Part shown: in pieces, positions 36,023 to 57,112 of the stretch
Position numbering within the stretch: the first letter of the stretch is position 1
How the letters are laid out: the number at the start of each line of letters is the position of its first letter
DNA from: Fidelibacterota bacterium
Lineage (GTDB): Bacteria > Fidelibacterota > UBA2242 > JAFGTP01
Assembly: GCA_016934035.1 (NCBI GenBank)
Contig: JAFGTP010000069.1
Coordinates: 6,073-70,072, forward strand
Reading direction: 5' to 3'
DNA length: 64,000 nucleotides
The notes under the pieces: generated by a model
What the model saw: only the letters and a program-made list of their open reading frames with translations
What the model was told of the DNA's origin: nothing
The model's database searches: none
Position numbers and translations under genes: made by a program

Positions 36023-36046
36023 TTTTTTTACGGATCAAGATTTTAT

Positions 36047-36085
36047 AAAACCTCGCCGGATGGAAATTCCCGCGAGGTTTTTTTT
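36047..36085 (+). terminator. Rho-independent terminator after pepC
   Basis: aaaacctcgc...gcgaggtttt followed by a T8 run (36078-36085). Confidence 0.65.
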
Positions 36086-36637
36086 ACGGCCTGTTTTCTT
36101 AATGACGATGAATACTGCAGATGCTGGCTTTTGATTCCACAGGTCGCACTTCGTGACGGAAATGATGCACTGGCAGGAACTCTCCGCCAGGGCATGCCGC
36201 TCAGCCGCCGGAATAGGAGTCTGAACCTGTGATTTGCAGCTATAAAACTGAAATGGATATGGGGAATTTCTAACTGGATTTCAGAATTAGTTCTTTTAAT
36301 TTTAAATAAAATACGATAAAATCTGACATTATTTGAATGGAAACGATATTGTGAGGTGTGGGTAATGTTCGCATTCACTTTTTATTTAGATGCTAAAGTA
36401 AATAAATTTAATATAGAATAGACGCAATGCGTATATAATGAGTTGTGGGCAAGGCTAAAAAGACAGAAACGACATGAAAAAAATGTTTGCCAAAAAAGAA
36501 AATAAAAAGCCATCTCACATTGCACACATTTGCAAATTGCACGAGCCACCCAAATACCTAAATTTGCCAAAGAGTGCAATTTTTGCCTGCGCTCAACTGA
36601 ATATGAATAGACAACAATATAAATTGGAATTGAATTA

Positions 36638-39265
36638 ATGAAATTATCACTCGCACGATTAGAGACCTTCTTGGAAGAAGCATGTGAAAGCTTACGTGGA
36701 AACATGGATGCTTCAGAATATAAGGAATACATTATTGCCATGTTATTCCTGAAAAGAGTAAATGACCAGTTTGAAGTTCATCGCGAAACAAGAAGAAAAA
36801 ATCTTGTTGAAAAAAGAAATATAACAAACCCCGAAATACTCTACACTGAATTAGAACGAGAAAACGCACCGGAATACGATTTCTTTGTTCCCATCGCTGC
36901 CCGATGGAAAAAGTTTGAAGGCGACCCTGAAACAGACGAAGATGGAAATACAATCAATTACATAAAAGACTTACAGGAAGAAATTGGCGACCACCTGAAT
37001 ATCGCACTTGCTGCTTTAGAAGATGCCAACCTTGACAAACTAGACGGTGTTTTAAAATCCATCAACTTTAATCGCAGTATCGGTAAAAACAATAAACAAA
37101 TTACCGACGAAGATTTACGGGAACTGATTCGGGAGTTCAACAAAAAGAAACTCACAGACAACAATCTGGAATTTCCTGACTTGATGGGAGCCGCTTACGA
37201 ATACCTGATTAAATACTTTGCCGACAGTGCCGGTAAAAAAGCCGGAGAATTCTACACACCCAACGAAGTCGTGCGTTTACTGGTAAATATTCTGGAACCT
37301 GCCGAAGATGCCGAGATTTACGACCCAACAGTTGGTAGTGGCGGCATGTTGATTGAAAGTAAAAACTATGTGGAAAGTCGCTATGGTTCTGCCCGAAACC
37401 TTTCGCTGTATGGACAGGAGAAAAGCGGCACGGTTTGGAGTTTAAGTAAAATGAACATGCTGTTCCACGGCATTTATGACAGCAACATTGTTAACGGCGA
37501 TACACTGATGAATCCCTTGCATAAAAAACAAGGTGAATTACAAACTTTTGACATTGTGATTGCCAATCCGCCTTTCTCGCAAAACTACAGCAAAGACGGC
37601 ATGAAGTTCAAAGAACGTTTTAATCATTGGATGCCTGTGAAAGGCAAAGCCGATTTTATGTTCGTGCAGCATATGGTGGCTTCTACCAACAATGCCGGAC
37701 GTATGGCAGTAGTGATGCCTCACGGTGTATTGTTCCGCGGTGGTGAAGAACGCGAATTCCGCAAATGGCTCATCAACAAAGGCTATCTGGAAGCAGTCAT
37801 TGGCATGCCACCGGGCTTGTTTTACGGAACCGGAATTCCGGCTTCTGTAATTGTAGTAAATAAAAAAGATGCCCACCTGCGTGAAAATATATTGTTCATC
37901 AATGCCGACCGTGAATACAAAGAAGGTAAAAACCAGAATAAACTGCGCCCCGAAGACATTGAGAAAATCTCTTTTGTGTATAAGCACAAAGAACAGATTG
38001 ATAAATACAGCCGTTTGGTGAGCAAACAAGAACTGGCAGATGAAGAGTACAACCTGAACATCCGCCGCTTTGTGGACAATGCCCCGCCTGCCGAATCCCA
38101 CGACGTACATGCCCATTTAAAAGGTGGTATTCCTATAGATGAAGTGGATGCCTTGAATCATGCGTTTTCATCGTATCCCGGACTACGCGATAAACTGTTT
38201 ACCGAATCAAAAGAAAACTACTTGCGTTTTACCGATGCCGTTGCAGAAAAAGAAGATATTAAAAAACTACTGGACGAAAGCCCCGAAGTACAAACCACGT
38301 TTGCTAATTACACAAAAGGGTTGGAAAAATGGTGGAGCGAGGCCGTTGTTGATTTTAAAAAACTGCCCGAAGAAAACAACGTGTTTGAATTGTATGGCAA
38401 ATTTTCCGACAGCTTTGCACAAGCTCTTTTCAGTTTGCCTTTTGGTGAAGAGAACAATGGTGCAATACTGGACAAATATCAAAGCCACGGCGCGTTGGCT
38501 GCTTATTGGGACGAACTGAAAACCGACCTGAAAAGTGTGGCTGCCAGCGGCTGGAATGCCGAACTGATACCCGATGATGAAATTCTGCAAAGCCAGTTCC
38601 CCGAAGTGCTGAAAGAACTGCACGACAACCAAAACCGCAAGGAAGAACTGGACGCCCTGTTTGCCGAAGTAAACGAACTGGAAGAAGGCCTTTGGACCGA
38701 AGAAGAATACGATGTGTGGCCCAAAACCGAACTCAAAGAGCACAAAGATGCCATTAAAGCCGATAAGGGCGAACTGCGAGAACTAACCAAGGAAATCAAA
38801 AATCTGAACCGCAGGATAGCCGCCTATAAAAAAGCCGGGCAGGAAAAAGGTAGAGACGCATTACAATGCGTCTCCAATGTTAAGACGCGATTCATCGCGT
38901 CTCAACGATTATCAGAACAAATTGCCGCTGATGAAGCCCGTTTTGCCAAACACAGTGAGTTAGAAGCCGAACTGCGCGAATGCAAAAAAGTAATCAAGCA
39001 GATAAAAGACCGCAAACAGCAACTGGTGGATGAAGCCCGCTTAAAAATAACACCCGAAGAAGCCAAAGACTTAATTCTTGACCGCTGGAACCGTACCCTG
39101 CACCAGACCATATACGGCTACCTGCAGGCCCATACCCGCCAACTGCTGCAAAACATTGAAAAACTGTGGGACAAATACACCACTACCCTAAGCAGCATTT
39201 TAAGCAAGCGCGAAGAAGAAACCCAATTACTCAACCAATTCTTACATGAACTCGGCTATGAATAA
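36638..39265 (+). CDS. hsdM: Type I restriction-modification system methyltransferase subunit HsdM, with a long coiled-coil C-terminal extension
   Basis: 875 aa. It has an HsdM_N-like start (..[20 protein letters not shown]..), the SAM motif [12 protein letters not shown] and the catalytic IVIANPPFS motif. About 390 aa of charged helical sequence lie after the MTase core. Confidence 0.92.
38853..38902. repeat. Two adjacent perfect hairpin repeats (AGACGC-N-GCGTCT cores) inside the hsdM reading frame
   Basis: The first hairpin is gagacgcatt-ac-aatgcgtctc (38853-38874; 10-bp stem). The second is agacgcgat-tc-atcgcgtct (38883-38902; 9-bp stem). They are translated in frame as ..[19 protein letters not shown].. 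Confidence 0.7.
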
Positions 39266-39389: not shown

Positions 39390-39417
39390 ATTTTTAACGG
39401 AGTTGGGCTATGAGTGA
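39385..39417 (+). pseudogene. Vestigial 3' end of a second (replaced) hsdM allele overlapping the hsdS start
   Basis: Frame 39385-39417 reads QTFLTELGYE-stop. The intact hsdM ends QFLHELGYE-stop (39236-39265). Nucleotide differences are mostly at synonymous positions. The relic stop TGA (39415-39417) lies 3 nt past the hsdS ATG (39410-39412). Confidence 0.55.
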
Positions 39418-40729
39418 GTGGAAAGAAAGTAAATTAAAAGAGGTAGTTGATATTCGGGTAAGTAATGTTGATAAAAAGATTTATCCAAATAAGAGTTTAG
39501 TTAAACTTTGTAATTACATGGATGTTTATAAAAATGATTACATATCTTCTAAAATATCATTTATAAATGGTTCAGCAGATAAAAATGAGATTTTACGATT
39601 TGGATTACAAATCAATGATGTAATTATTACTAAAGATTCTGAAACACCTGATGATATTGCAGTTTCTTCAGTCGTGTCTGAGAAAATTGAGAATCTTGTT
39701 TGTGGTTATCATTTGGCAATTCTTAGACCGAATCAGGATGAAGTTGATGGCAGATTTTTAATGTTTATGTTCAAGTTACCAGCAATAAAAAACTATTTTT
39801 TTAGTGTAGCAAATGGTAGTACAAGATATGGGCTTACAATTGGAAATATTGAAAATGCTAAATTAAGGTTTCCACCCCTTCCCACCCAACGCCGCATCGC
39901 CCGCATCCTGTCCACCGCCGATGCGGTGATCGAAAAAACACAAGCCGCCATTGCCAAATACAAAGCCATCAAACAAGGCATGCTGCAGGATTTGTTTACC
40001 CGCGGCATCGACACCCAAACTAGCAAACTGCGCCCCAAATACCAAGACGCCCCGGAACTCTATAAAGAAAGCAAACTGGGCTGGATTCCGAAGGAGTGGG
40101 AAGTGGAAATATTTGGAGAACAAGTAGAATTAGTTCACGGTCATCAATTTAGAAATTATGATTTTACAGAATTTGGTTTTCCTATTGTTAAGATAGGACA
40201 AGTAAAACCTGAAAATTTAAATTTAAGTGATTGTTCATGCGTCTCTTTTGATAGGATAGATGAATTTATAAATGAGATTATTGGTAACGGCGATGTGCTT
40301 ATGGCTCTTACAGGAGCCACACTTGGAAAGGCTTGTTTAGTGCATGGTCTGAATGGAATAGTACTTCAAAACTATCGTGTTGGTAGGTTTGAACCAAAAA
40401 TTAGAGAAAAAGATATTGATAAAACATTCCTATACTACATATTAATTGCTGGTGAACTACTGAATCAAATTTTCAGCAAAGTAAATTCTGGTGCACAAGG
40501 CAATATTGGTAAAGCAGATTTTGAGAAGGCAACTTTCAAAAAACCTAAATTCAACGAGCAACTACTAATTGCTCAAAGATTGCAATCAATCGATAATAAA
40601 ATCCAAACCGAACAAACCTACCTGCACAAATTGCAGCAGATAAAAGCCGGTTTAATGGCTGATTTGCTCAATGGGAAGAAAGAAGTAATTATAACTGATC
40701 AAGAAATTTTAACAGAAAGAAATAATTAA
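39410..40729 (+). CDS. hsdS: Type I restriction-modification system specificity subunit HsdS (two TRDs + two conserved repeats)
   Basis: 439 aa. The conserved central region is ..LRFPPLPTQRRIARILSTADAVIEKTQAAIAKYKAIKQGMLQDLFTRGI.. The C-terminal repeat is ..EQLLIAQRLQSIDNKIQTEQTYLHKLQQIKAGLMADLLNGK.. Confidence 0.9.
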   Translation: MSEWKESKLKEVVDIRVSNVDKKIYPNKSLVKLCNYMDVYKNDYISSKISFINGSADKNEILRFGLQINDVIITKDSETPDDIAVSSVVSEKIENLVCGYHLAILRPNQDEVDGRFLMFMFKLPAIKNYFFSVANGSTRYGLTIGNIENAKLRFPPLPTQRRIARILSTADAVIEKTQAAIAKYKAIKQGMLQDLFTRGIDTQTSKLRPKYQDAPELYKESKLGWIPKEWEVEIFGEQVELVHGHQFRNYDFTEFGFPIVKIGQVKPENLNLSDCSCVSFDRIDEFINEIIGNGDVLMALTGATLGKACLVHGLNGIVLQNYRVGRFEPKIREKDIDKTFLYYILIAGELLNQIFSKVNSGAQGNIGKADFEKATFKKPKFNEQLLIAQRLQSIDNKIQTEQTYLHKLQQIKAGLMADLLNGKKEVIITDQEILTERNN

Positions 40730-40730
40730 A

Positions 40731-42449
40731 ATGACCAATATTTCAAGTGGTTTAAAGTCAATAAACGAACTTCTGAATTACGATTTTTTCATACCTTACT
40801 ATCAACGTGGCTTTCGTTGGGATAACAACCAGGTAAATGATCTTTTAAATGACATTTATGATTTCTATAAAAAGAAGAAATTATCAGAAAATGAGTTCTA
40901 TTGTTTACAACCCATTGTTGTTACACCAACTGATGGGAAATATACTTTAATCGATGGACAGCAACGTCTAACGACTATTTATATTATCATGGCTGTGTTA
41001 GATGAAGTGATGAGAATGTTAGGCAAAACCAAGTTTTCACTTGAATATCAAACCAGAGAAGATAGCGAAGTGTTTCTTAAAGACATCGACTACATAAAAA
41101 GAGATGATAATATAGATTACTTCCACATGTGCCAAGCTAAAGAAACGATTGAAGATTGGTTTTCAAAAAAAGACGGTGGGGTAAAAGTAAATCTTTTAAA
41201 CACACTCTTAAATGAAGAAGGAAATAATGTTCGGATTATATGGTATGAAGTTGATAGTACGATCGATCCAATTAATCTTTTTACCAATTTAAATATGGGG
41301 AAAATACCTCTGACAAACGCAGAATTGATTAAGGCTCTTTTTCTGAATAGAGATAATTTTATTGATGAGAAAAATGAGAAAGCCAAACAATTACGCCAAC
41401 TTGAAATTGCGTCCGATTGGGACAGAATAGAACAAACGTTGCGAGAAGAGGAATTTTGGTATTTTCTACAAGATGACAATAATCATTATGATAATCATAT
41501 AGAAATTATCTTCGACCTAATCTCAGAAAATATGGTTAAAAGAGGCACAAAAGAACATTACGACAAATATTATACATTTAGATTTTTCCATGAAAAATTT
41601 AAACAAAAATCAGATATTGAAGAAAATTGGAAGGAAATTAAAAATTATTTTCAAACCTTTAGAGACTGGTTTAAAAATAAAGAACTTTACCATTTAATTG
41701 GATTTTTAATTACTACGGATGTTAGTTTGAAATATCTGTATGAAGAATCAAAAATACACACGAAGAAAGAATTTAAAAAGTTTTTAATAGAAGCAGTAAA
41801 AAAACAAATTAGTTCAGTTAAAATAGAAGAACTCACATATCAGGAAGATAAAAGTGTTTTAAGAAATGTTCTCTTACTATTTAATATTGTGACTATTTTA
41901 CAAAATGAAAAAACTAATTTGAGATTCCAATTCGGAAGATACAAAAACGAAAATTGGGATATAGAACATATTCACGCTGTAAAATCGGAGATGCCCACTT
42001 CAAGAGTTGAGCAATTAGACTGGCTGAGGCAAGTTAAGGATTATACTGATGATTCAGATTTGCTCAAGCAAGTGACCGATTATCTGGAAACTCAAGCGCA
42101 AGATAGAAAATATGATTTTGAAGAACTGTACGATTTAGTAATAAAAAAATATAGCGAAGAAGGAAGAGATGAAGATATTAATGATATTTCAAATCTTACT
42201 TTACTCGATTCGGGAACAAACCGTGGATATAAAAATGCTGTATTTCCAATTAAAAGGAAAACAATTATCGAAAAGGATGAGACCGGCACATTTATTCCCC
42301 TCTGTACAAAAAATGTATTTCTTAAATATTATACAAGAAAGCTGGAACAGATGAGTCTATTGGGAAAAGAAGACAGAATGGCATATAAAACAATTCTTGT
42401 GAAAACTATAAATGATTTTTTAAACCTTAACAATAAAACAGAAGAATAA
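40731..42449 (+). CDS. GmrSD-family protein (N-terminal DUF262 ParB-like NTPase domain + C-terminal DUF1524 His-Me-finger nuclease domain)
   Basis: 572 aa. DUF262 motifs are FIPYYQRGFRW, LIDGQQRLTT (40953-) and FTNLNMGKIPLTNAELIKA. DUF1524-like motifs are NWDIEHIHA (about 41955-41978) and NLTLLDSGTNRGYKN. The ATG lies 1 nt after the hsdS stop. Confidence 0.8.
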   Translation: MTNISSGLKSINELLNYDFFIPYYQRGFRWDNNQVNDLLNDIYDFYKKKKLSENEFYCLQPIVVTPTDGKYTLIDGQQRLTTIYIIMAVLDEVMRMLGKTKFSLEYQTREDSEVFLKDIDYIKRDDNIDYFHMCQAKETIEDWFSKKDGGVKVNLLNTLLNEEGNNVRIIWYEVDSTIDPINLFTNLNMGKIPLTNAELIKALFLNRDNFIDEKNEKAKQLRQLEIASDWDRIEQTLREEEFWYFLQDDNNHYDNHIEIIFDLISENMVKRGTKEHYDKYYTFRFFHEKFKQKSDIEENWKEIKNYFQTFRDWFKNKELYHLIGFLITTDVSLKYLYEESKIHTKKEFKKFLIEAVKKQISSVKIEELTYQEDKSVLRNVLLLFNIVTILQNEKTNLRFQFGRYKNENWDIEHIHAVKSEMPTSRVEQLDWLRQVKDYTDDSDLLKQVTDYLETQAQDRKYDFEELYDLVIKKYSEEGRDEDINDISNLTLLDSGTNRGYKNAVFPIKRKTIIEKDETGTFIPLCTKNVFLKYYTRKLEQMSLLGKEDRMAYKTILVKTINDFLNLNNKTEE

Positions 42450-42450
42450 T

Positions 42451-44682
42451 ATGAGAAACATCGGTAAAAAAACCAGTTTTTTTGAGATATTTGATAAAGG
42501 AAATCAAAAAGTTGAAATCCCTATAATTCAGAGAGACTACGCACAAGGTAGGATTTCGGAAATCGAAGTGCGAATTAATTTTCTGAAGTCAATAAAAAAA
42601 AGTTTTGAATCTAATGAGCCAATACATCTTGACTTTATATATGGTAGTATTGAGAATAATGTTTTTATCCCGCTTGATGGTCAACAGCGATTAACTACTT
42701 TGTTTCTTTTGCACTGGTATTTAGCAGCAAGAGAAGAAAGATTAGAAGAATTCAATAAGATATTTAGAAAAGACAATGAGTCACGTTTTACTTATGAGAC
42801 CAGGATATCATCAAGAGAGTTTTGCAATGCTTTGGTATCAAATAAGATTGAATTTCCAAAGAGTAAAGATGAATTTATAAGTGAGATAATAAAGGACTCA
42901 TCCTGGTATTTCATGTCGTGGGATAACGACCCAACAATTTCTGCTATGCTCATCATGTTGGATTCAATACATAATCTGTTTTTTGATATAACTGATAAAT
43001 ATGACAAATTAATAGATCCTGGACAATTTATTAGTTTTCAGTTTATTGAGTTAAAAGATTTTGGTTTAAGCGATGAACTTTACATAAAAATGAATGCACG
43101 GGGTAAAGAGCTAACATATTTTGAAAACTTCAAAGCGAAATTTTCTAAAATCCTGGAGCAACAAGACAATGAGAACGGTACTTCTCTAAAGGATGAATTT
43201 TCAATTAAAATCGATACATGCTGGACAGATTTGTTTTGGCCCTTTAAGGATCCTTCAACAAATATTATAGATGATAAAATAATGAATCTGATCCGGGTTA
43301 TTATTACAAATTATTATTCACTCCGCGATGATGTTGATTTTCATGTAATAAATGAATTGACCAATAATAAAGTAAAATATTCATACTATAAATATGAAGA
43401 ACTAAGTTGTTTTGATGAGGTGACTAATAAATATATCATTGCTTATTTAAATTGCTTATTAGGAGAAAATAATGTATTTCGGTATTACTTGGAAGATAAG
43501 GGTTTAGTGGATGAGTTGGGAATATTTAAAAACGTTATTAACCATAATATATCATATCCAGTTAGAATTCAGTTTTACGCATTGTATCAATATTTAATTG
43601 AAGGATATTCAAAAGAACAATTGTTTGACTGGATGAGAGTCATAAGGAATTTGACAGAAAATACACGCATTGATGAAATAAAAGATTATATCGATGCTCT
43701 TAGATCTGTTAGTATGCTCCTTAACCAAAGTGAAAATATCCTTGAATACTTAACCGATAATAACAATGAAGTCAGTGGTTTTTCTACAATCCAGGTAAAA
43801 GAAGAAAGAATAAAGGCAATTCTATTATTAAGAGATGATAATTGGAGAGAAGCAATTATTGATATTGAGAATCATACCTATTTTTATGGTCAAATCGGTT
43901 TCTTACTGAATTTCTCCAAAATAGAAGATTACTTTGAAACAGACCATACGCTGAATTGGTCTGTAGATGAAAACGACAAATATTTTGAAGAATTTAAAAT
44001 TACTATCGATAAAGCGAAATCTGTATTTAATGAAAATGGTATTAATGACTTTAATGATTTTATTTTTGAACGGGCTTTACTAAGTATTGGTGATTATTTG
44101 TTGAGGAAAGGAAGTAACCGTAGTTTTGGAATAAATGGAAAAGAAAGAGATATTAGTTGGAAACGGTTACTCCGCGATAATGATAGAAGCCGTGATTACC
44201 TTAGAGTTCTTTTTTCGAAAATAAGCAGTGATTCTGTTTTTGATGATTTGAAAACTATTATTCAAAATTCAGATATAAATGATTGGAGAAGGTATTTTAT
44301 AGAATTTCCGGAACTTATATCAGTCTGCGGTTACAATAAATACATTAGGTTTAATAGTGAAAAAGACATATTACTTTTAGAAAAAACACAGACAAATGGT
44401 AGGCATAGGGAATATTACACTTACGCTCTTGCTACCCGGCTTAGGAAAGCTGAGAATTCAGTAAACTATATTAAAGGGTATTCTGTTGACCATTTTAAGT
44501 ATATCAAAAGGATAAATAATATTAGTGTAGATATCAAATTTGATTATTTTTATGATCGTGGCCGTTGTTATAAAATTGAATACAATAAAGAAGTGTACTT
44601 CTTTGATGACGATATTGAAATATTAGACTTCTTATTAAAAAATCAAATTATTAAAACTAATTCAACTTACGAGGGTAAGTAA
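42451..44682 (+). CDS. DUF262-domain protein with a large unassigned C-terminal region (divergent GmrSD-family paralog?)
   Basis: 743 aa. DUF262 motifs are EIPIIQRDYAQGR, PLDGQQRLTT (42676-) and YIKMNARGKELTYFENFKA. The C-terminal region of about 500 aa has no clear motif. Only a weak DIENH (43861-43875) plus LLSIGDYLLRKGSNRS trace is present. The ATG lies 1 nt after the upstream stop. Confidence 0.7.
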   Translation: MRNIGKKTSFFEIFDKGNQKVEIPIIQRDYAQGRISEIEVRINFLKSIKKSFESNEPIHLDFIYGSIENNVFIPLDGQQRLTTLFLLHWYLAAREERLEEFNKIFRKDNESRFTYETRISSREFCNALVSNKIEFPKSKDEFISEIIKDSSWYFMSWDNDPTISAMLIMLDSIHNLFFDITDKYDKLIDPGQFISFQFIELKDFGLSDELYIKMNARGKELTYFENFKAKFSKILEQQDNENGTSLKDEFSIKIDTCWTDLFWPFKDPSTNIIDDKIMNLIRVIITNYYSLRDDVDFHVINELTNNKVKYSYYKYEELSCFDEVTNKYIIAYLNCLLGENNVFRYYLEDKGLVDELGIFKNVINHNISYPVRIQFYALYQYLIEGYSKEQLFDWMRVIRNLTENTRIDEIKDYIDALRSVSMLLNQSENILEYLTDNNNEVSGFSTIQVKEERIKAILLLRDDNWREAIIDIENHTYFYGQIGFLLNFSKIEDYFETDHTLNWSVDENDKYFEEFKITIDKAKSVFNENGINDFNDFIFERALLSIGDYLLRKGSNRSFGINGKERDISWKRLLRDNDRSRDYLRVLFSKISSDSVFDDLKTIIQNSDINDWRRYFIEFPELISVCGYNKYIRFNSEKDILLLEKTQTNGRHREYYTYALATRLRKAENSVNYIKGYSVDHFKYIKRINNISVDIKFDYFYDRGRCYKIEYNKEVYFFDDDIEILDFLLKNQIIKTNSTYEGK

Positions 44683-44713: not shown

Positions 44714-44746
44714 TTTGTCGTAAATATTTACTAAATTTGCGACAAA
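44714..44746. promoter_or_regulatory. Candidate operator / internal promoter region upstream of the AbiEi-like gene
   Basis: The inverted repeat tttgtcg (44714-44720) / cgacaaa (44740-44746) flanks the perfect palindrome TAAATATTTA (44721-44730). It sits in the only sizeable spacer (78 nt) inside the operon. Confidence 0.3.
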
Positions 44747-44760
44747 AATGGATACATAAA

Positions 44761-45390
44761 ATGCAAAAAAGCCTTGAAAAACAAATACTTACAAAATTCA
44801 AAAAAGCGGGACGGGGTACGCTCTTTTTCGCTGAAAATTTTCATTCACTTGGCAATACCAAAGCCGTCAATAAAACACTGGAGCGGCTGGTGGATAAGGG
44901 CGAGTTACTGCGTGTCGCAACCGGTATTTATGTCCGTCCCAAAAAAGATGCGGTTATTGGCATTATTACACCCGGAATTGAGGACATTGCCAAAGCCATT
45001 GCCAAAAGAGACCGCGCCCGAATTGTGCCCACCGGTATTTATGCCCTTAACAAACTGGGACTATCCACCCAGGTGCCTTTGAATATTGTGTACCTAACCG
45101 ATGGTGCTGCCCGGAAAATCAAGGTGGGGAAAAATACCATCACCTTTAAAAAAACCACACCCAAAAATGTTGCTGCTGTGGGAGAAATCAGCAAACTGGC
45201 TATTCAGGCGCTGCGCACGATAGGCAAAGACAATGTAACAAAAGCAGAAATAGAAAAAATTCAGACGCTGCTCAAAAAAGAAAAACCTACCCGCCTGGAA
45301 CAGGATATTCGTCTTGCCCCGGTGTGGATAAAAGAAATCATGAAACCCGTATTGGAAAATTTAACCAATGAATCAAAAAGCACTCAGTGA
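44761..45390 (+). CDS. AbiEi-like antitoxin / transcriptional regulator (DUF6088-type wHTH)
   Basis: About 209 aa from ATG 44761 (the track ORF begins at TTG 44737). ..AVNKTLERLVDKGELLRVATGIYVRP.. resembles the AbiEi N-terminal winged-helix. It overlaps the AbiEii-like gene by 23 nt. Confidence 0.6.
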   Translation: MQKSLEKQILTKFKKAGRGTLFFAENFHSLGNTKAVNKTLERLVDKGELLRVATGIYVRPKKDAVIGIITPGIEDIAKAIAKRDRARIVPTGIYALNKLGLSTQVPLNIVYLTDGAARKIKVGKNTITFKKTTPKNVAAVGEISKLAIQALRTIGKDNVTKAEIEKIQTLLKKEKPTRLEQDIRLAPVWIKEIMKPVLENLTNESKSTQ

Positions 45391-46381
45391 ATGGCTTAAA
45401 CTGCCGGACGAAACAAAAAAAAATATATTTACAGAGATCAGTAAAAAAACAGGACTGCCTGCCATTGCTGTAGAAAAGGACTGGTGGGTGGTCAAAACAC
45501 TGGAAGTGGTTTTTAATACGGATATTGCCGATCACACCGTGTTTAAAGGCGGCACATCATTAAGCAAAGCCTGGGGCCTCATCGAACGCTTTTCCGAAGA
45601 TATAGATCTGGCATTGGACAGGAAGTTTTTAGGTTTTGACAAAGAAATTACCGGCTCACAGGTAAAAAAACTGCGGCAGCATTCATTCAAGTTTATATCT
45701 GAAGAATATTATCCCAAATTAGAGGAAGCCTTTCATCATTACGGATTGACGGAAGTTGAATTGCAATTAACAGAACCTTCTGCCAATGACCAGGACCCGC
45801 TGATTATAGAAACGCACTATCCCGGACTTATCGAAAATTCAGACTACATTCATTCACGCGTCCTAATCGAAATAGGCAGCCGTTCACTAAAGGAACCATT
45901 TACCGTCAGGGAATTCAATACTATGGTGGGAGAACATTATCCGGATAAATCCTTTGCGGATTCTGTCATTTCTATACCTACCGTAAATCCGGAAAGAACA
46001 TTTCTGGAAAAAATCTTTCTGTTGCATGAAGAATTTCAAAAACCTTTAGACAGAATAAAGGTTGATCGTTTAAGCCGGCATCTGTATGATGTTGAAAAAC
46101 TGATGGATACCGAATATGCTGAAAAAGCCTTATCCGATCCAAATCTGTACAAACATCTTGTAGAACACAGACGAACCATGACACCGGTCAGGGGAATCGA
46201 TTATGCCTGTCACGCACCGACTAAAATAAATCCGGTTCCGCCTGATAATTTATTTAATGCTTGGAAAAAAGATTATTTACAAATGCAGGAAAATATGATT
46301 TATGGTGAATCCCTGCCGTTTGATAAACTTCTGGATAGAATTCGTGAGTTAAAAGAACGAATCAATAAAATAAAACTATAA
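45368..46381 (+). CDS. AbiEii/AbiGii-family nucleotidyltransferase toxin
   Basis: 337 aa. ..VFKGGTSLSKAWGLIERFSEDIDLAL.. is the hallmark NTase block of AbiEii-type toxins. RHLYDV lies in the C-terminal half. Confidence 0.8.
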   Translation: MNQKALSEWLKLPDETKKNIFTEISKKTGLPAIAVEKDWWVVKTLEVVFNTDIADHTVFKGGTSLSKAWGLIERFSEDIDLALDRKFLGFDKEITGSQVKKLRQHSFKFISEEYYPKLEEAFHHYGLTEVELQLTEPSANDQDPLIIETHYPGLIENSDYIHSRVLIEIGSRSLKEPFTVREFNTMVGEHYPDKSFADSVISIPTVNPERTFLEKIFLLHEEFQKPLDRIKVDRLSRHLYDVEKLMDTEYAEKALSDPNLYKHLVEHRRTMTPVRGIDYACHAPTKINPVPPDNLFNAWKKDYLQMQENMIYGESLPFDKLLDRIRELKERINKIKL

Positions 46382-49300: not shown

Positions 49301-49606
49301 CCAACCACTCCAGGCATATCTGGAATTGAAGCACCATTTTTCGATTTGCTGAAAAGTAGCGTTAAAAGTGAGAACGAAGCAGAAATCAAGAAAACAAAAG
49401 AACTGATTCATACCTTAATGCCAATACTGCATGAAACCGCAGAAATAAGAAACTTCTGGACAAAAGCAGCGGAACGTAAAAGAGTGGAAGGATTAATTGA
49501 AGATGAAATACATTATTCAGGTGTAGAAGTGTTATCAAATAAAGCTGCTGAATTGACAACTGAACTAATGAAACTTGCCAAAAACAGAGAGTCAGACTTG
49601 AGATGA
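46394..49606 (+). CDS. hsdR: Type I restriction enzyme R subunit HsdR (nuclease + SF2 translocase)
   Basis: 1070 aa. The N-terminal PD-(D/E)xK-like region is ..PDIVLFLNGMPICVVEAK.. Walker A is HTQGSGKSLSMVF, the DEAH box is LLLIDEAHRTQ, and FTGTP and QAITRVNR motifs are present. Confidence 0.93.
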   Translation: MAEYVNVEKPFLDKLRLLGWQVIDQGIGIPQEPQKSLRETFKQVVLPEEFKKAIKKINTTAEGSEWLTDRQLDELLREIQNFPGKSLHEANKEIHRLLLKGTSVAKNELTGEQDPSVRLVDFKNYDNNSFIAINQFRLITPGASRQGIIPDIVLFLNGMPICVVEAKDFDVAEPLSEAFLQVTRYANTRDDDYGYKEGEERLFHYNMFSIITHGTEARVGTISAEFDFYNNWVDIFPEEYKVVDFPPDEERQEVLIHGMLNKEILIDILKHFTLFIEIKKGVEVKIVARYNQYRAVGKIINSLRAGRTPMERGGVVWHTQGSGKSLSMVFLIRKLRSLDDLKDLKIIFIVDRIDLEDQLSETAAMTGEPVRIISRRNKLNELSDDTGDVNMVMIHKFLDEKNISAQSLIEAGMVPKFETFETINNSDRILLLIDEAHRTQGGDMGDNLFSAFPNATRIGFTGTPLLTERHEIKTHERFGGFIDFYKFDKAVKDRATVEIKYIGKVSKDKLDDKDAFDTEFEDMFEKQSQAEKEEIQRRYGSFIAYLESKDRIAKIAKNIVEHYHKDILVNGFKAQVVASSIVAAVRYKYELEIAIKNKIDELKSLPENEKDNELIQQLEFLKVASIVSSLGNNEPGYISKARREAKEMNAIENFKADFNPEKPETGIGFICVCDRLLTGFDAPVEQVMYLDKSLREHDLFQAITRVNRTKHGKSFGLIVDYFGVTKHLADALSIYTDKDKLQWEDFQKVFRDVDKEIPILEARYKRLLDLFTGNKLKDIEKFLKQKFTDEIEEFEFAESCIETAKNVKFRAELLTYTKSFFDSLDLLFNIQAGTEYWIPAKRLGYIIWRIKDRYKDETMDLKWASEKVRKLIDKHLLSIGIDTKVQQVSILSDEFGKKVDYLNKTPKSKASEMEHAIRWHIKVNLEKDPTLYSHFKDRLESILNSYKENWETIVDELQKLREEMAEGRKPTTPGISGIEAPFFDLLKSSVKSENEAEIKKTKELIHTLMPILHETAEIRNFWTKAAERKRVEGLIEDEIHYSGVEVLSNKAAELTTELMKLAKNRESDLR

Positions 49607-50286
49607 AATTAGAAGGAATTAACATAAAAGTTGAGAAAACAGACCGCCGCAAAACGGTAAGTATTTTTATAGAACGGGATGGCTCTGTTCGGGTTTTGGC
49701 ACCTTCAACTACCAGTGATGAGAAAATTGAAGAAGCGGTAAAAGCCAGGCAATATCAAATATTTTCAAAACTCGCCAAATGGCAGGAACTCAATGAGGGT
49801 AGAGTCAACCGTAAATTTGTAAACGGTCAATCGTTTTTATACTTCGGTAGAAATTACAGACTTTCAATTGTAGAAAAACAAGATGTTCCATTAAAACTAA
49901 TAAAAGGCTACTTAATACTTGATAAAAACAAACTTGATAAAGCAGACGAAGTATTCAGGCAATTTTATAAGGAGAAAGGAAAAAAGAAAATTGAAGAACG
50001 GTTGAAATTAATTGCAGAGAAATTTGAACAAAAACCGACTTCAATTAAAGTTATGGAATTGCAAAATCGTTGGGCATCCTGGTCACCAAAACATGGGCTG
50101 AATTTTCACTGGAAATGTGCTATGGCACCTGTTCCGGTAATTGACTATATCATAACCCATGAAATGGTGCATTTAAAATATCCAAATCATTCTCCGGAAT
50201 TCTGGAACGAACTGGATAAAAAAATGCCTGACTATAAAGAATATGAAAACTGGTTAAAACAAAATGGTGTTAAAATGTCAATATAG
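49603..50286 (+). CDS. DUF45 / YgjP-like (M48-related) zinc metallohydrolase
   Basis: 227 aa. It has the HExxH motif in ITHEMVHLKYPNHSPEFW. The ATGA start/stop overlaps hsdR (49603-49606). Confidence 0.8.
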   Translation: MKLEGINIKVEKTDRRKTVSIFIERDGSVRVLAPSTTSDEKIEEAVKARQYQIFSKLAKWQELNEGRVNRKFVNGQSFLYFGRNYRLSIVEKQDVPLKLIKGYLILDKNKLDKADEVFRQFYKEKGKKKIEERLKLIAEKFEQKPTSIKVMELQNRWASWSPKHGLNFHWKCAMAPVPVIDYIITHEMVHLKYPNHSPEFWNELDKKMPDYKEYENWLKQNGVKMSI

Positions 50287-50596: not shown

Positions 50597-50944
50597 ATGT
50601 TAATTGGAAAAATCGAAACAATGGGTTGCTGCGGTGCATACTGTGGAAAGTGCAAAGAGTTAGAAAAAAAATTATGTACCGGTTGTAAAATTGGATATCA
50701 AGATAAGAAAAGAGATATCAAAAAAGTAAAATGCAAAATTAAAAAATGTTGCATTTTGAAAAAGTTAGATTCATGTGCAGATTGCTATGAATATGACAAT
50801 TACGTAATAATAAATGAATTTTACAGTAAAAATGGCTATAAATATAAAAAATACAAAGAAGCATTGGATTTTATAAAAAAGAATGGCTATCAAACATTCT
50901 TTAAAATAACTGAAAAATGGAATATGCAATATGGAAAGTATTAA
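50597..50944 (+). CDS. Cys-rich DUF3795-like protein
   Basis: 115 aa (107 aa if translation starts at ATG 50621, MGCCGAYCGKC..). The pattern CCGAYCGKC...CTGC...KC.IKKCC...CADC is typical of DUF3795. Confidence 0.6.
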   Translation: MLIGKIETMGCCGAYCGKCKELEKKLCTGCKIGYQDKKRDIKKVKCKIKKCCILKKLDSCADCYEYDNYVIINEFYSKNGYKYKKYKEALDFIKKNGYQTFFKITEKWNMQYGKY

Positions 50945-50954
50945 GGAAAAGAAA

Positions 50955-51725
50955 ATGAAAGTAACTGCGTTTGTTGGAAGTGCTAGAAAGAAACATACTT
51001 ACAATACATGTGAAATGCTATTAGAAAAATTAAAATCCTTTGGGAATATAGAAACAGAAATTGTTTGTCTGCAAAATTTCAATTTGCAAGTTTGTAAAGG
51101 ATGCATAGCTTGTCTTGACAGAGGAGAAGAATATTGTCCCTTAACAGATGATAGAGATCTTTTAATAAATAAAATGAAAGAATCGGATGGGGTAATATTT
51201 GCCACGCCAAATTATAGTTTTAATGTATCAGCCTTAATGAAAATATTTCTTGATCGACTTGCATATTTTGGTCACAGGCCAGCATTTTTCGGAAAGACTT
51301 TTACCAGTATAGTTGTGCAAGGAATATTTGGCGGAGAGAAAATTGTTAAATATTTGGATTTTCTAGGAAATGCTATTGGATATAATGTAGTGAAAGGATC
51401 TCTTATAAAATCACTTGAACCTATGACAGAAAAGAATCAAAAGAAGAATGAAATAGCGATAGAGAAACAAGCTAAGAAGTTTTATAAACAATTGATTAAA
51501 AAAGGATTTAAAAACCCTTCTTTGCTTGAATTATTTATATTTAGAATGTCTAGAAGCAGTATAAAAACAATGTTAAATGAAAATTATAGAGATTATGAAT
51601 ATTTCAAGAAAAATGGATGGTTTGATTCAGATTTCTATTATCCAATAAAAATAAATATATTAGAAAAGATGTTTGGAGATATTTTTGATAAAATATCTGT
51701 GAAAGCTGCTAAAAACCGTAAATGA
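50955..51725 (+). CDS. Flavodoxin-like fold NAD(P)H-dependent FMN reductase / iron-sulfur flavoprotein-like protein
   Basis: The start MKVTAFVGSARKKHTYN.. is preceded by AGGA. The track ORF begins at 50931, overlapping the upstream gene. It has CKGCIACL...EYCP Cys motifs and ..SDGVIFATPNYSFNVSALMKIFLDRL.. Confidence 0.65.
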   Translation: MKVTAFVGSARKKHTYNTCEMLLEKLKSFGNIETEIVCLQNFNLQVCKGCIACLDRGEEYCPLTDDRDLLINKMKESDGVIFATPNYSFNVSALMKIFLDRLAYFGHRPAFFGKTFTSIVVQGIFGGEKIVKYLDFLGNAIGYNVVKGSLIKSLEPMTEKNQKKNEIAIEKQAKKFYKQLIKKGFKNPSLLELFIFRMSRSSIKTMLNENYRDYEYFKKNGWFDSDFYYPIKINILEKMFGDIFDKISVKAAKNRK

Positions 51726-53075: not shown

Positions 53076-55256
53076 TTATTCCACAAACAAATGTCTGAAA
53101 ATGATCGGCTTCTGATTAATAAATGAAATCTTCACAAAATAGATACCCGCCGGAAAATCCTGAATGGAAATTCTGCCGGCCTGCTGCAAGCCGGTGGATG
53201 CAGTGTAAACCATCCGGCCCTGTAAATTGTAGATTTTTATCTCTCTCATCTGGTGATCGGCTTCAATATTAAGAAAGAACCTGGCAGGATTCGGGAAGGC
53301 GCTGAATTTTATAGTCCGCGACACCATTGGATTATCGGGGTTGCTGTCCGTAGCGACATGACTTCGTAATTGAGGAATATATTCATCCAGCCAATGGATC
53401 CTGGTCTCGATCCAGGTTTTGAGTTTATTAATTTCCTGTTCATAGGTATATGAAGGCGGATCGGTTTCCGGGGTCATATAACCCTGGTCAATGGGCCAGA
53501 GTTCAAAATGTCGCTCTTTCACGTCATCCACCAGGGCCACAACAGAATCAATATAAGAATTGATATTGTCCGGATCCAAAAAGCCTTCCCGCAATTCAAA
53601 ATATCGATTGATCAATTGGTCAGTAAATTCCTCATCCTGAAGCAGGCGATTGTACCAGTATGGCGGACTGGGCCAGCAGGGATAATGACTATAAGACCAG
53701 CCGGAACCATCCTTTATCGCAAAAATTCCCTCGCTAATGTTTTTCCATGCCCAGTCAAAATCCCAGACCGGGCCGGCATGTAACAATCCGCCTTTGCTAT
53801 CTTTGTCCTTGTAAAAAAACCGGCTTTTTTTGTAGCCATCGACATTTCTGGATACTTCGCTGACCAGGAAATAATCGATGAAACTGTTGACATCCAGATA
53901 TTTGCGGTAACCATTTTCCGGATCTGCGAAATCCTCACTTCGCAGGGATCCTTCAAGATTATTGATGAAATTTTGTATATAGTCTTTCTGTTCATCAGCC
54001 AGTTCATCGGGTTTTGGGTCGTGGTAAACGAAATAAACCTTGTTCTCCGGATGATCAATGGCTGTGTAGTCTGATAAAAAACTATCGTCGTCAGAATAAT
54101 AATCGATTTTGATGATATAGCCGCCGGTGAGGTCATCTCCGGAAATCTCATCGGGCTCCAGTTTTGAAACGTCCACCCTGTTTTTGTCCCGTTTGATTTT
54201 TTCTGTGAACAGGTAAATTCCCCGGTAAGTATTATTGACAAACACTTCACACAATTTGGATCGGGGAGCATAATGCCCCATGGATCGAAACATCTCAAAA
54301 GCCAGAGAGTTCCTGACAAAGGCCTTATCATTGTAATTGGGAATCAGGATCCAGTCATTCTCTTTTGCGAATCCCAGTAGTGAAATATTGAGATTTTCGC
54401 CCGCTTCATCCCTGGTTTCTATACCATAGGGTTTTTGTGGAAAAGTGGCAGAATAAGAGCCTCTGATTTCAATACCGATATTTCCATCATAATGTTTGAT
54501 TGAATCAGATGGATGATTCAATTCTCCTTCGCCATGATAGGTGATTTTTAAATTGGCATCAATCTTGGCTTCATCGGGAATGTATTCGCCATCAGTATCG
54601 ATCATGAAAATCGGCAATGGCGATGCCGCGAAATCTTCAAATTGAACATCTGTGCCCACAAGTTCCGGCAGTATTAAAAAGTCTGAACTGGAAGTCCCCA
54701 TATTCACGCCATGAATGGCCAGCAGGTTTTCACCGGGAACCAGATACCGTATATAATTGGAAATATCTATGGTAACTTCTGAAGTGGCCTCATTATTACT
54801 GGGTGCGCTGTAATTCCAGGCTGCAAACCGGGAGGCATTCATGATGGTGCATTCATGGCCATTGATATAAGCAATAAACCCGTCGTCATATCTTATTTTT
54901 AATTGCAGGACCAGAATTTTTTCCAGGGTTTGAGCACTCAGATTGAAGGGAATTCGAATATAACACCCGGTATTGGCATTACCGCCGTCATCGTGCATTT
55001 CATCACCCACATCCAGACTGATAAACTGCTCGTATCCGGTGCCTTTTTCATAGCCGATTCCGCCCGGAAGTCCTTCACAAATTTTCCAGTCGGAATCATC
55101 ATAATCCAGCTTCGACCGCCATGCTGTGCCACTGTCTTCATGGGGGACAAATGCTTTTTTGGTGGCTTGCTTTTCCACTAAAGTGATGGTAGTTCCTGCC
55201 ATTAATGGGAGTATTAAAATTAAGATAGTGACAAGTATAGCAATGGATTTTTGCAT
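53076..55256 (-). CDS. CotH-family (atypical kinase fold) secreted protein with T9SS C-terminal sorting domain
   Basis: 726 aa with a signal peptide. The central ..IEIRGSYSATFPQKPYGIE...NDKAFVRNSLAFEMFRSMGHYAPRSKLCEVFVNNTYRGIYLFTEKIKRD.. resembles CotH. The C-terminus is FSAFPNPARFFLNIE...AGIYFVKISF. Confidence 0.65.
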   Translation of the reverse strand: MQKSIAILVTILILILPLMAGTTITLVEKQATKKAFVPHEDSGTAWRSKLDYDDSDWKICEGLPGGIGYEKGTGYEQFISLDVGDEMHDDGGNANTGCYIRIPFNLSAQTLEKILVLQLKIRYDDGFIAYINGHECTIMNASRFAAWNYSAPSNNEATSEVTIDISNYIRYLVPGENLLAIHGVNMGTSSSDFLILPELVGTDVQFEDFAASPLPIFMIDTDGEYIPDEAKIDANLKITYHGEGELNHPSDSIKHYDGNIGIEIRGSYSATFPQKPYGIETRDEAGENLNISLLGFAKENDWILIPNYNDKAFVRNSLAFEMFRSMGHYAPRSKLCEVFVNNTYRGIYLFTEKIKRDKNRVDVSKLEPDEISGDDLTGGYIIKIDYYSDDDSFLSDYTAIDHPENKVYFVYHDPKPDELADEQKDYIQNFINNLEGSLRSEDFADPENGYRKYLDVNSFIDYFLVSEVSRNVDGYKKSRFFYKDKDSKGGLLHAGPVWDFDWAWKNISEGIFAIKDGSGWSYSHYPCWPSPPYWYNRLLQDEEFTDQLINRYFELREGFLDPDNINSYIDSVVALVDDVKERHFELWPIDQGYMTPETDPPSYTYEQEINKLKTWIETRIHWLDEYIPQLRSHVATDSNPDNPMVSRTIKFSAFPNPARFFLNIEADHQMREIKIYNLQGRMVYTASTGLQQAGRISIQDFPAGIYFVKISFINQKPIIFRHLFVE

Positions 55257-55507
55257 AATGGTCCTTAATAATGCCGATAATATATGAAAAAAAATATTTA
55301 ATCCTGTTTAATTTTTAAAATATTTATAAAATTGTCCGGCAAAACAATCTGCTGATTTTTCTGACTATCTCTAGACATTAATTTTGAAAATCAGTATCAA
55401 TAACCGTGGTCTTTTTAAATGCACCGGGCAATTTTTTTCTTGAATCCTGTCGTTTCATTAAATAACTTGGATTGTTAATGGCAAATAATAATCGGAAGAG
55501 AATTATA

Positions 55508-56722
55508 ATGAAAAAATTCGTAATTTTTGCTATATGCGCCTTAGTAGCAATTACCTCATGTGATAGAAATAAAGGAATTGAAGCCCAAATAGATCCTCCT
55601 AATCCAATTGATATTATATGGGAAAAACTCGAGAAACCAGATGTTAAGTACAAATACGATTGGGGTGATACCTGTATTGTTTCAATGGATTATAATGACG
55701 GTAAATGGATAGGCTTGACTCAGTGGAAAAATGTAAAATTGAGTGCAAGTAATGTAGAATTTCAACCAATTTAATTTGTTCTGGAAAACAATGAAGTAAA
55801 AAAAACTGGTAATGCAAAGCCAATATATAATAGAGGTTCTGATCCCAGAGTAAAATTTAGAAATGAAACTCCTGCCATATTTTATAACGAAACTAAGAAT
55901 GAATTTTCTGGTGATACTTACCAAAGAATTTTAGGAGACATTGACTATGAATCAAAAAGCATTATCAATAAAAAAATACTACCAAGAGGTGATACAAATG
56001 AGTTTGGTGTTGATGAATTAGGTAACATTTATATTCCAACTTTTCCCAAAACAAGATTTCGTTTCAAAGATCTAATATTCCTAAAGGCATCAAAAGGGCT
56101 GGGGATCAAAGACAAAATTTTTCCAAAGTTATATAAAAAAGGACTCAAATTAAAACATCCGGAATTTACAATTGATAAGTATAACTCTGCTCTGGAAAAA
56201 ATAGATAGTTTCGGACGATGGAATTATTGGGGAAATATATCTGATAGAGACTCACTTTTCAAAGATATGGTTCTGAATGTACGTCATGTTAATTATTACT
56301 TAAATCATATTTATACAGTTTCTAAACTTTTTGGCTATATTGAAAAATATGATTTAGAGGGTAATTTTGTAAATCATTTAGATCTGCATTCAATCACACC
56401 TCTGTTTCATCCCGGTAAGGGATATTTAGGCGGACCAATTCCCAATACTAAAATTTGCAACGGGAAACTGTTTATTATGTCGGGTATTCCTGCTGATAAA
56501 ATAAAAAATTATGTGGATATACCGGATAATATTTCCTTTGTAATTTGCTTAATCAAAGTTGATGTATCAAAGGAAGATATGGTTCTGGAAAAAGTCTATT
56601 ATTATTTTCCACAAGAAAGAGAAGAAGTGATGATAAAGGGCGTTTTCTCATTTGTTATGCTGGATGAAAATACTTTTGTTCAATCCACTGCAAAGTCATT
56701 AGAATTATATAATTTGAAATAA
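55508..56722 (+). pseudogene. Lipoprotein gene (beta-propeller-like?) interrupted by a single in-frame TAA at 55772-55774
   Basis: The lipoprotein signal is MKKFVIFAICALVAITSC. Frame 2 is open from 55508 to 56722 except for one TAA. The 164 codons after the stop (55775-56266) contain no stop and no ATG/GTG/TTG. Confidence 0.6.
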
Positions 56723-56872
56723 AATAGAGAGAACACTGATGAACGAAAAATTCAAATGCCAAAGTAAACAAAAGTGGCTGGCGTTCCTTTTTCCATTATT
56801 GCCATTTCTAACATTATTTATTGAACCTTTTTAAATGGACACTGATTATTCATGCGTTAATATACATAGGGG

Positions 56873-57112
56873 TTGGATATTATTTTTCAAAAATTCAACC
56901 TTGTTTATGCTGAAGTGAAGGATGGGAAAATCTATTTCTTTGCCGGCATTGGCTTGTATGATCCAAATTTTTTGGATTTATCACAAATCAATTTGGTAGA
57001 AAAAACAGCCCCTTCCCTATTGCTGATTAACTATGATGATAATAAAAAACTATCTATTGAAGCACCACGAAATGTGATTGACCAGATGAAAGAGTATTTC
57101 AGGCAGAAGTGA
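56873..57112 (+). CDS. Hypothetical small protein
   Basis: 79-aa ORF with a TTG start. It is AT-rich, and I recognised no motif. Confidence 0.3.
   Translation: MDIIFQKFNLVYAEVKDGKIYFFAGIGLYDPNFLDLSQINLVEKTAPSLLLINYDDNKKLSIEAPRNVIDQMKEYFRQK

Follow-up and report, generated by a model that had tools for sequence, protein, structure and literature searches.

GrwAB, a two-gene defence system of V. cholerae that was described and validated in 2025 as an enzyme that cleaves base-modified phage DNA, is the described system that most closely resembles a pair of adjacent genes in a 64,000-nucleotide stretch of DNA (hereafter the window) from a Fidelibacterota bacterium (assembly GCA_016934035.1, contig JAFGTP010000069.1). 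The two genes, designated A and B, lie downstream of hsdS and upstream of hsdR in a type I restriction-modification (RM) operon, and each encodes a protein that begins with a DUF262 domain. In Escherichia coli, neither GrwA nor GrwB is protective on its own, whereas the two proteins together yield 10^4 to 10^5-fold protection (PMC12137116). None of the BASEL phages tested is held back by GrwA alone (PMC12137116). The phages restricted by GrwAB are Tevenvirinae, which carry glucosyl- or arabinosyl-hydroxymethylcytosine (hmC), and Queuovirinae, which carry 7-deazaguanine, and phages that escape restriction map to the DpdA transglycosylase (PMC12137116). Defence is abolished by the mutations R81A, H431A, N521A and N530A in GrwA, and by R86A in GrwB (PMC12137116). 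We place at roughly 85% the probability that A and B constitute a heteromeric type IV (modification-dependent) restriction enzyme of the GrwAB type, encoded by a cassette that sits between hsdS and hsdR.

TgvAB, another two-gene relative already in the literature, likewise lies within a type I locus. In this system, from VPI-2 of Vibrio cholerae, the DUF262-only protein TgvA works with the DUF262-DUF1524 protein TgvB against glucosylated hmC. Both DGQQR motifs are needed, the targets are modified cytosines, and TgvA is without the extended C-terminal domains that are present in B and GrwB. The GmrS1/GmrSD2 system of E. coli ECOR17 and the ‘two-gene GmrSD’ clusters CLS_003 and CLS_004 are two-gene type IV enzymes, wherein a ParB_n-only protein and a ParB_n-nuclease protein are both required (PMC12373910). 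Judged from the published description, their DUF262-only gene comes first, unlike in the window (PMC12373910).

Protein A shares its DUF262-linker-DUF1524 architecture and its motifs with the single-chain GmrSD family (Eco94GmrSD/EcoCTGmrSD, BrxU, SspE, HEC-06 and DndI), whose genes often lie within type I RM, BREX or Hma loci. The single-chain enzymes act as homodimers of one protein, whereas A is strictly co-inherited with B, a DUF262 protein that carries no nuclease. Moreover, the self-sufficiency of single-chain enzymes does not extend to the homolog GrwA, which is insufficient alone (PMC12137116).

Homology to GrwA and GrwB

The GrwA and GrwB sequences were recovered by matching the published residue numbers to the spacing of residues in the loci, followed by a search with the B protein of L033, one of the related loci surveyed below. 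The V. cholerae member of the B family (P0458) is present on 330 contigs, under accessions that include AFC57365.1 and AWB73058.1. Searches with the Vibrio halioticoli B protein and with two large clusters returned Acinetobacter sequences and no V. cholerae member. The V. cholerae locus (L081-L083) corresponds to VSP-II of the WASA type, beside rpoD and dnaG. It encodes RadC, two DUF2787 proteins, a 603-residue DUF262-DUF1524 protein, an 821-residue DUF262 protein, a 651-residue protein, a transposase and an integrase, which is the layout published for WASA VSP-II as ‘LAT-1’. We identify the 603-residue protein as GrwA and the 821-residue protein as GrwB because they carry the residues mutated in the published study (PMC12137116), namely R81, H431, N521 and N530 in the former and R86 in the latter. 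The 651-residue protein encoded after grwB (L081-L083:12833-14788) has no precomputed Pfam match and, judged by its position, should be VcSduA, the published GHKL-Shedu protein.

Protein A aligns with GrwA at 40% identity over 595 residues (A 8-564, GrwA 9-597; BLASTP E 3e-150; phmmer 447 bits), and B aligns with GrwB at 36% identity over 744 residues (B 5-686, GrwB 4-736; BLASTP E 1e-128; phmmer 397 bits), with the last ~55 residues of B lying outside the alignment. Every residue known to be essential in GrwAB is conserved: R79, H413, N488 and N497 of A correspond to R81, H431, N521 and N530 of GrwA, and R80 of B corresponds to R86 of GrwB. Because these degrees of identity are maintained over full-length homology, the window pair is, as judged by sequence comparison, a member of the GrwAB family.

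The first-pass annotation, made from the letters of the window, had proposed the pair as its best candidate for an undescribed system. This proposal is wrong because both proteins are full-length homologs of a system that has been described and validated; TgvAB had also been published from within a type I locus. The same annotation had suggested a two-component arrangement of effector and sensor, and the two-component idea matches the experimental finding that both genes of the homologous GrwAB are needed (PMC12137116).

The window pair and GrwAB have the same gene order, with the fusion gene first and the gene for the DUF262 partner second, and in both cases the genes overlap or abut. Their domains are also alike, given that GrwA consists of DUF262, a linker and DUF1524, and GrwB of DUF262 followed by multiple C-terminal domains of unassigned function. 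They differ in host, which is Vibrio for GrwAB and a Candidatus Marinimicrobia metagenome-assembled genome (MAG) for the window pair. They also differ in setting: GrwAB resides in VSP-II beside a Shedu gene, whereas A and B lie between hsdS and hsdR and are followed by an AbiE pair. Finally, B is 78 residues shorter than GrwB (743 versus 821).

Domains and conserved residues of A and B

The first-pass annotation had called two consecutive open reading frames (ORFs) encoding 572 and 743 residues, each with an ATG located 1 nucleotide (nt) past the preceding stop (hsdS to A, and A to B). Both genes are intact, the coordinates are exact, and the spacing can be read directly in the sequence (Table 1). 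The Pfam family GmrSD_N matches A (E 4.5e-31) and B (E 4.8e-21), and is the only Pfam domain found in B. The DUF262 motifs are FIPYYQRGFRW, DGQQRLTT and NMGKIPLTNAELIKA in A, and IPIIQRDYAQGR, DGQQRLTT and NARGKELTYFENFKA in B. Thus the DUF262 signature previously reported for both proteins is present, with its third pattern exact in B and offset by one residue in A. NCBI lists an identical copy of B, annotated as a DUF262 protein, from a Candidatus Marinimicrobia MAG.

Protein A has the architecture of a GmrSD enzyme in one polypeptide, with an N-terminal DUF262 domain (QR, DGQQR and FxxxN) and a C-terminal H...N...N arrangement of the His-Me type. Its match to Pfam GmrSD_C is below threshold (E 1.1e-3; 19 bits versus a cut-off of 23). 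Regardless, E412, H413, N488, N497 and N502 align with the His-Me residues of GrwA and are each at least 95% conserved among 70 relatives, and the spacing between the two asparagines of the motif is 9 in all 70. The previous description of A as a complete fusion therefore stands despite the weak GmrSD_C match. The best matches to A in a sequence search of the PDB are DndI (9jfl, E 6.6e-7) and SspE (E 2e-3), both confined to ~85 N-terminal DUF262 residues. Likewise, the HEC-06, SspE and mREase_IV models of PADLOC v2.0.0 cover only the N-terminal ~100 residues of A and do not match B, such that this tool misses the pair. A search of NCBIfam with A and B yielded no match.

In protein B, the QR, DGQQR and FENxKA motifs are invariant among 34 homologs and at least 95% conserved among 74. 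The C-terminal region contains a further set of conserved residues (E473, G480, Q481, R541, G547, Y549, W570, H652 and E654), which are also present in GrwB when its sequence is read. AlphaFold2 models the full-length protein with a mean predicted local distance difference test score (pLDDT) of 88.5, and residues 440-743 with a pLDDT of 92.5 and a predicted template modelling score of 0.89. Foldseek searches with full-length B against the PDB, and with residues 440-743 against the PDB and BFVD, returned nothing at E <= 1e-3; BrxU and the C-terminal domain of SspE appeared only at E values of about 1-2. A sequence search of the PDB with B likewise gave no match. In addition, Pfam GmrSD_C does not match any of the 34 B homologs even at E 1, and hhalign assigns a probability of 0.2% to an alignment between the B C-terminus and the DUF1524 region of A. 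By Pfam, hhalign and Foldseek, B has no recognisable nuclease. The part of the mechanism that is unexplained sits in the C-terminal 300 residues of B, for which the model is confident and resembles no solved structure.

A hidden DUF1524 domain in B had seemed conceivable by eye from the strings ‘IENH..GQIGF’ and ‘GDYLL.KG.NRSF’, when set against ‘EH’ and ‘NLTLLD..TNRGY’ of A. We rejected this candidate based on the hhalign and GmrSD_C results above. Two residues of this by-eye motif are also only partly conserved among 74 relatives, H475 being found in 62 and N556 in 47. Furthermore, the motif cannot be required because GrwB, which is functional, has N and A at the positions of H475 and D548.

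Pairing and distribution of the family

When one genome per GTDB species was scanned, at least 587 species proved to carry a relative of B, and 80 loci were taken from these (L001-L080). In all 77 loci for which upstream DNA is available, the gene that directly precedes B, in the same orientation, is A-like (phmmer E 1e-83 to 1e-229). Among 64 loci, the pairwise identities of A and those of B are correlated (r = 0.87), with means of 39.8% for A and 34.5% for B. The pairing and the gene order of this family are essentially invariant, and the expectation that the two genes co-travel is borne out.

The junctions between the genes are similarly constrained. The start of B lies at -4 nt relative to the stop of A in 27 of 64 related pairs and at -1 nt in 7, and 53 of the 64 fall between -8 and +15 nt. 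‘Translationally coupled’, as the window pair was initially described, is an interpretation of the spacing, and the conservation of the tight A-B junction across related pairs supports it. B is not a decaying copy, a possibility that had been raised as fatal to the two-component idea, because it is full length in 73 of the 80 loci, where its NTPase motifs are intact. Nor are A and B the products of a recent duplication. As had been surmised, they are ancient and divergent DUF262 paralogs: BLASTP of A against B finds nothing, and hhalign aligns only their N-terminal domains (98% probability, E 8e-14), leaving out the middle and C-terminal parts. Split versions of A or B, each divided into two ORFs, are found in a few loci (L002, L025, L026, L036, L051 and L077) and may reflect frameshifts or mistakes in assembly.

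The family is distributed very widely. Hosts of B relatives belong to Bacteroidota, Pseudomonadota, Bacillota, Verrucomicrobiota, Planctomycetota, Acidobacteriota, Spirochaetota and WOR-3, and also include lineages of the Candidate Phyla Radiation such as Saccharibacteria and Peregrinibacteria. An HsdR gene is directly downstream of B in 13 of 70 loci, and hsdM or hsdS is upstream in a similar fraction, such that approximately one-fifth of the related pairs are embedded in type I loci and ~80% are found elsewhere. Other neighbours of related pairs include BREX (BrxL), KAP NTPases, OLD/AAA_15-21 ATPases, UvrD helicases, and WYL and Fic proteins.

The type I hosts represent two hsdM/hsdR lineages. 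In L008, these genes are 50-54% identical to hsdM and hsdR of the window, whereas in the others the identity is 26-31%. Across the same type I-embedded loci, A and B retain 34-48% identity to the window pair. We favour repeated insertion or exchange of the cassette into type I operons because A and B are conserved at this level even where hsdM and hsdR are only 26-31% identical.

The publication on GrwAB reports 471 homolog pairs, from about 1% of genomes, and does not mention embedding in type I loci (PMC12137116). What the present data add to that description is the breadth of the family, its near-invariant pairing, and the niche between hsdS and hsdR that is occupied by ~20% of pairs in at least two type I lineages. 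These observations are incremental and concern a known system. For annotation purposes, the genes should be called grwA-like and grwB-like and the product a two-component type IV enzyme, rather than a ‘DUF262 domain-containing protein’ or a new system.

Proposed mechanism and alternative explanations

If A and B function as a GrwAB-type enzyme, then A would be a protein of the single-chain GmrSD type, in which an N-terminal DUF262 domain serves as NTPase and sensor and is joined by a helical linker to a DUF1524 His-Me nuclease that cuts DNA. B would be its obligatory NTPase partner, with an active-looking DUF262 domain of its own and no nuclease signature. The most likely arrangement, by analogy to V. 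cholerae GrwAB, is a complex of the two proteins. Once both DUF262 domains bind and hydrolyse nucleoside triphosphates, the nuclease of A would be licensed to act on invading DNA that carries hypermodified bases, whereas unmodified host DNA would be spared. The type I system would cover unmodified DNA, leaving modified DNA to A and B, and therefore phage genomes of both classes would be open to attack by the operon. This pairing of type I restriction with the restriction of modified DNA follows the logic proposed for BrxU/BREX and for TgvAB.

Direct support for this proposal comes from the full-length homology to GrwA and GrwB, the intact catalytic motifs, the strict pairing and co-evolution of the genes, and their tight junctions. 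We infer from GrwAB that both genes are required and that the target is modified DNA. The strict co-occurrence of the genes in 77 of 77 loci, and the correlation of their identities (r = 0.87), are consistent with a requirement for both.

Several points weigh against this assignment. Formation of a complex by GrwA and GrwB has only been modelled (PMC12137116). At 36-40% identity to GrwAB, the substrate specificity of the window pair may differ. The polar residues conserved in the C-terminal region of B (E473, Q481, R541, H652 and E654) leave room for what may be a second catalytic activity. Also, the full TgvAB operon protects 10- to 100-fold better than the TgvAB pair alone. The site-directed, restriction-inactivating hsdR mutation K172A left this operon effect unchanged, and the authors suggest an expression artefact. 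There is perhaps a slim chance that, in pairs nested within type I loci, the C-terminal domains of B couple physically to the HsdR translocase or to HsdM/HsdS, or that they read a class of modification that is new as a restriction target. If so, the operon would encode a single integrated enzyme that deals with modified as well as unmodified DNA, rather than two co-regulated systems.

The niche between hsdS and hsdR, and the logic of a DUF262-only partner and a fusion protein that are both required, are features that A and B have in common with TgvAB, and could place them in that family. However, the gene order is reversed, with the DUF262-only TgvA first in TgvAB and the fusion first in the window. 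When compared with the first 400 residues of TgvA and TgvB (Table S3, PMC11411939), A exhibits similarity only at the level of DUF262 (22-29% identity, E 1e-8 to 1e-14; TgvB 27%, E 2e-11), and B reaches an E value of about 0.01 with either protein. The motifs of the A and B families are not in the TgvAB homolog tables, and the authors of the GrwAB study note that, DUF262 aside, GrwB differs from TgvA (PMC12137116). Given that the full-length homology to GrwAB is far stronger than the similarity to these first 400 residues, we rejected membership in the TgvAB family, which we regard as extremely unlikely. One might also ask whether A and B are simply two independent enzymes that lie side by side, with A a self-sufficient single-chain GmrSD and B a separate DUF262 enzyme with an unrecognised C-terminal effector. 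Single-chain GmrSD, BrxU, SspE and HEC-06 work alone, A has everything that a single-chain enzyme possesses, and the conserved E473, H652 and E654 of B lie in a region that matches no known fold. Independent genes would not be expected to adjoin each other in 77 of 77 loci, to overlap at their junctions and to have identities correlated at 0.87, and neither GrwA nor GrwB protects alone (PMC12137116). The candidate His-Me-like motif of B is also not required, given the N and A at the positions of H475 and D548 in functional GrwB. Independence of the two proteins is thus very unlikely.

A connection of a different kind is suggested by the best PDB sequence matches of A, DndI and SspE, which are both phosphorothioate sensors. 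Together with the position of the pair directly after hsdM and hsdS, these matches could indicate an effector that senses host modification, perhaps by reading the N6-methyladenine of the flanking type I methylase and acting on DNA that lacks or disturbs this mark. The matches, however, cover only the ~85 N-terminal DUF262 residues of A, and ~80% of related pairs are found outside type I loci. GrwAB, moreover, functions in E. coli with no partner modification system present, and its escapers lose a phage modification (PMC12137116). We consider a host-modification sensor highly improbable. The remaining alternative assigns the enzymatic function to A alone and makes B a guard, or an anti-anti-restriction component, that overcomes or senses phage inhibitors of GmrSD such as IPI*-like proteins. 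The authors of both the TgvAB and GrwAB studies raised a guard role for the partner as a possibility, and it would explain the large, fast-evolving C-terminal region of B (34.5% mean identity versus 39.8% for A). Yet GrwA alone fails to protect even against BASEL families that are not known to encode such inhibitors, and the NTPase motif of GrwB is essential (R86A) (PMC12137116). The invariant DUF262 motifs of B suggest an enzymatic role inside the complex instead, and a function limited to guarding appears unlikely.

Base composition

A and B have GC contents of 30.0% and 29.5%, respectively (29.7% for the pair), and form the lowest-GC 4 kb of the window, whose mean is 40.7% with a standard deviation of 4.3 points over 2-kb windows. 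The corresponding values for the other genes of the operon are 43.6% for hsdM, 34.9% for hsdS, 43.3% for abiEi, 39.0% for abiEii and 39.8% for hsdR, and the housekeeping genes of the window range from 39 to 49%. The four hand counts in the first-pass annotation, on which its claim of shifted composition was founded, are exact (23.3%, 26.7%, 53.3% and 50.0%).

Related pairs average 4.3 GC points below their flanks (Wilcoxon p 7e-9), with the pair lower than the flanks at 86% of 58 loci; the -11 points of the window pair are at the extreme of this distribution. This difference, together with the presence of related pairs in two type I lineages and in many non-RM defence contexts, agrees with the earlier view that the pair is a separate cassette. 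Within the window, low GC is not unique to the defence cassette because the FMN_red gene (50931-51725; 28.6%) is as low as the pair, and the stretch from 55000 to 57000, which is without a long ORF, has a GC content of 32-35%.

Operon context

The genes hsdM, hsdS, A, B, abiEi/abiEii, hsdR and a YgjP-like gene form one co-oriented and tightly packed operon (Table 1). The AbiE pair is a second, independent system that is nested in the same operon and stands outside the A-B system. The flanks are of the housekeeping type, with pepC and an M29 peptidase gene upstream, and FMN reductase and nucleoside hydrolase genes downstream. A search within the window found no tRNA, integrase or transposase beside the island.

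Table 1. Window coordinates of the A and B genes, their junctions and domains, and the other genes of the operon.
Feature	Coordinates	Strand	Matches or content
hsdM, type I RM, 875 aa	36638-39265	+	Pfam N6_Mtase (E 1.6e-102), HsdM_N; PADLOC MTase_I (E 1e-227)
hsdS, 439 aa, two target-recognition domains	39410-40729	+	Pfam Methylase_S, 2 stretches; PADLOC Specificity_I (E 1e-79)
hsdS-A junction	40727-40733	+	hsdS stop TAA (40727-40729), 1 nt, ATG of A (40731)
Gene A, grwA-like, 572 aa	40731-42449	+	DUF262 NTPase, helical linker, DUF1524 His-Me nuclease (predicted)
DUF262 (GmrSD_N) domain of A, aa 14-205	40770-41345	+	YQR (24-26), DGQQR (75-79), NMGK..LTNAELIKA
His-Me (DUF1524) nuclease core of A, aa ~405-512	41943-42266	+	WDIEH(413), N488-LTLLD, TN(497)RGYKN(502)
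A-B junction	42447-42453	+	A stop TAA (42447-42449), 1 nt, ATG of B (42451)
Gene B, grwB-like, 743 aa	42451-44682	+	DUF262 NTPase and ~500 aa without recognised domain
DUF262 domain of B, aa 12-231	42484-43143	+	IPIIQRDY, DGQQR (76-80), KMNARGK..FENFKA
C-terminal region of B, aa 440-743	43768-44679	+	Helical subdomain and alpha/beta subdomain, no assigned function
abiEi (DUF6088) and abiEii, toxin-antitoxin	44737-46381	+	Pfam DUF6088 (E 5.8e-78), AbiEii (E 4.5e-34); PADLOC AbiEi/AbiEii
hsdR, 1070 aa	46394-49606	+	Pfam HSDR_N, SWI2_SNF2, ResIII, T1R_D3-like; PADLOC REase_I (E 1e-113)
YgjP-like metallopeptidase gene, overlaps hsdR stop by 4 nt	49603-50286	+	Pfam YgjP-like (E 3.9e-55)

Parts of this arrangement recur elsewhere. 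Among the related type I-embedded loci, at least 10 have a YgjP-like homolog after hsdR (for example L008, L017, L020, L031, L033, L038 and L058). The order A-B-abiEi-abiEii-hsdR is found again in a Methylococcales MAG (L062), whose AbiE proteins (L062:2953-4538) are only 31-32% identical, and whose hsdR is 36% identical, to those of the window.

The hsdM product extends ~390 residues beyond the end of its N6_Mtase domain (residues 181-482); this extension is without a Pfam domain and is covered by the long MTase_I models of PADLOC. Upstream of hsdM is an AT-rich intergenic region of 615 nt (36023-36637; ~37% GC) that may be the promoter or regulatory region of the operon. Two minus-strand ORFs encoding 111 and 119 residues (36043-36741), for which Pfam gives no match, overlap this region. 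A host of the FCB (Fibrobacteres-Chlorobi-Bacteroidetes) group would fit both the Marinimicrobia attribution and a 726-residue protein encoded downstream of the operon on the minus strand (53076-55256), which has a CotH kinase domain and a C-terminal Por/T9SS sorting domain.

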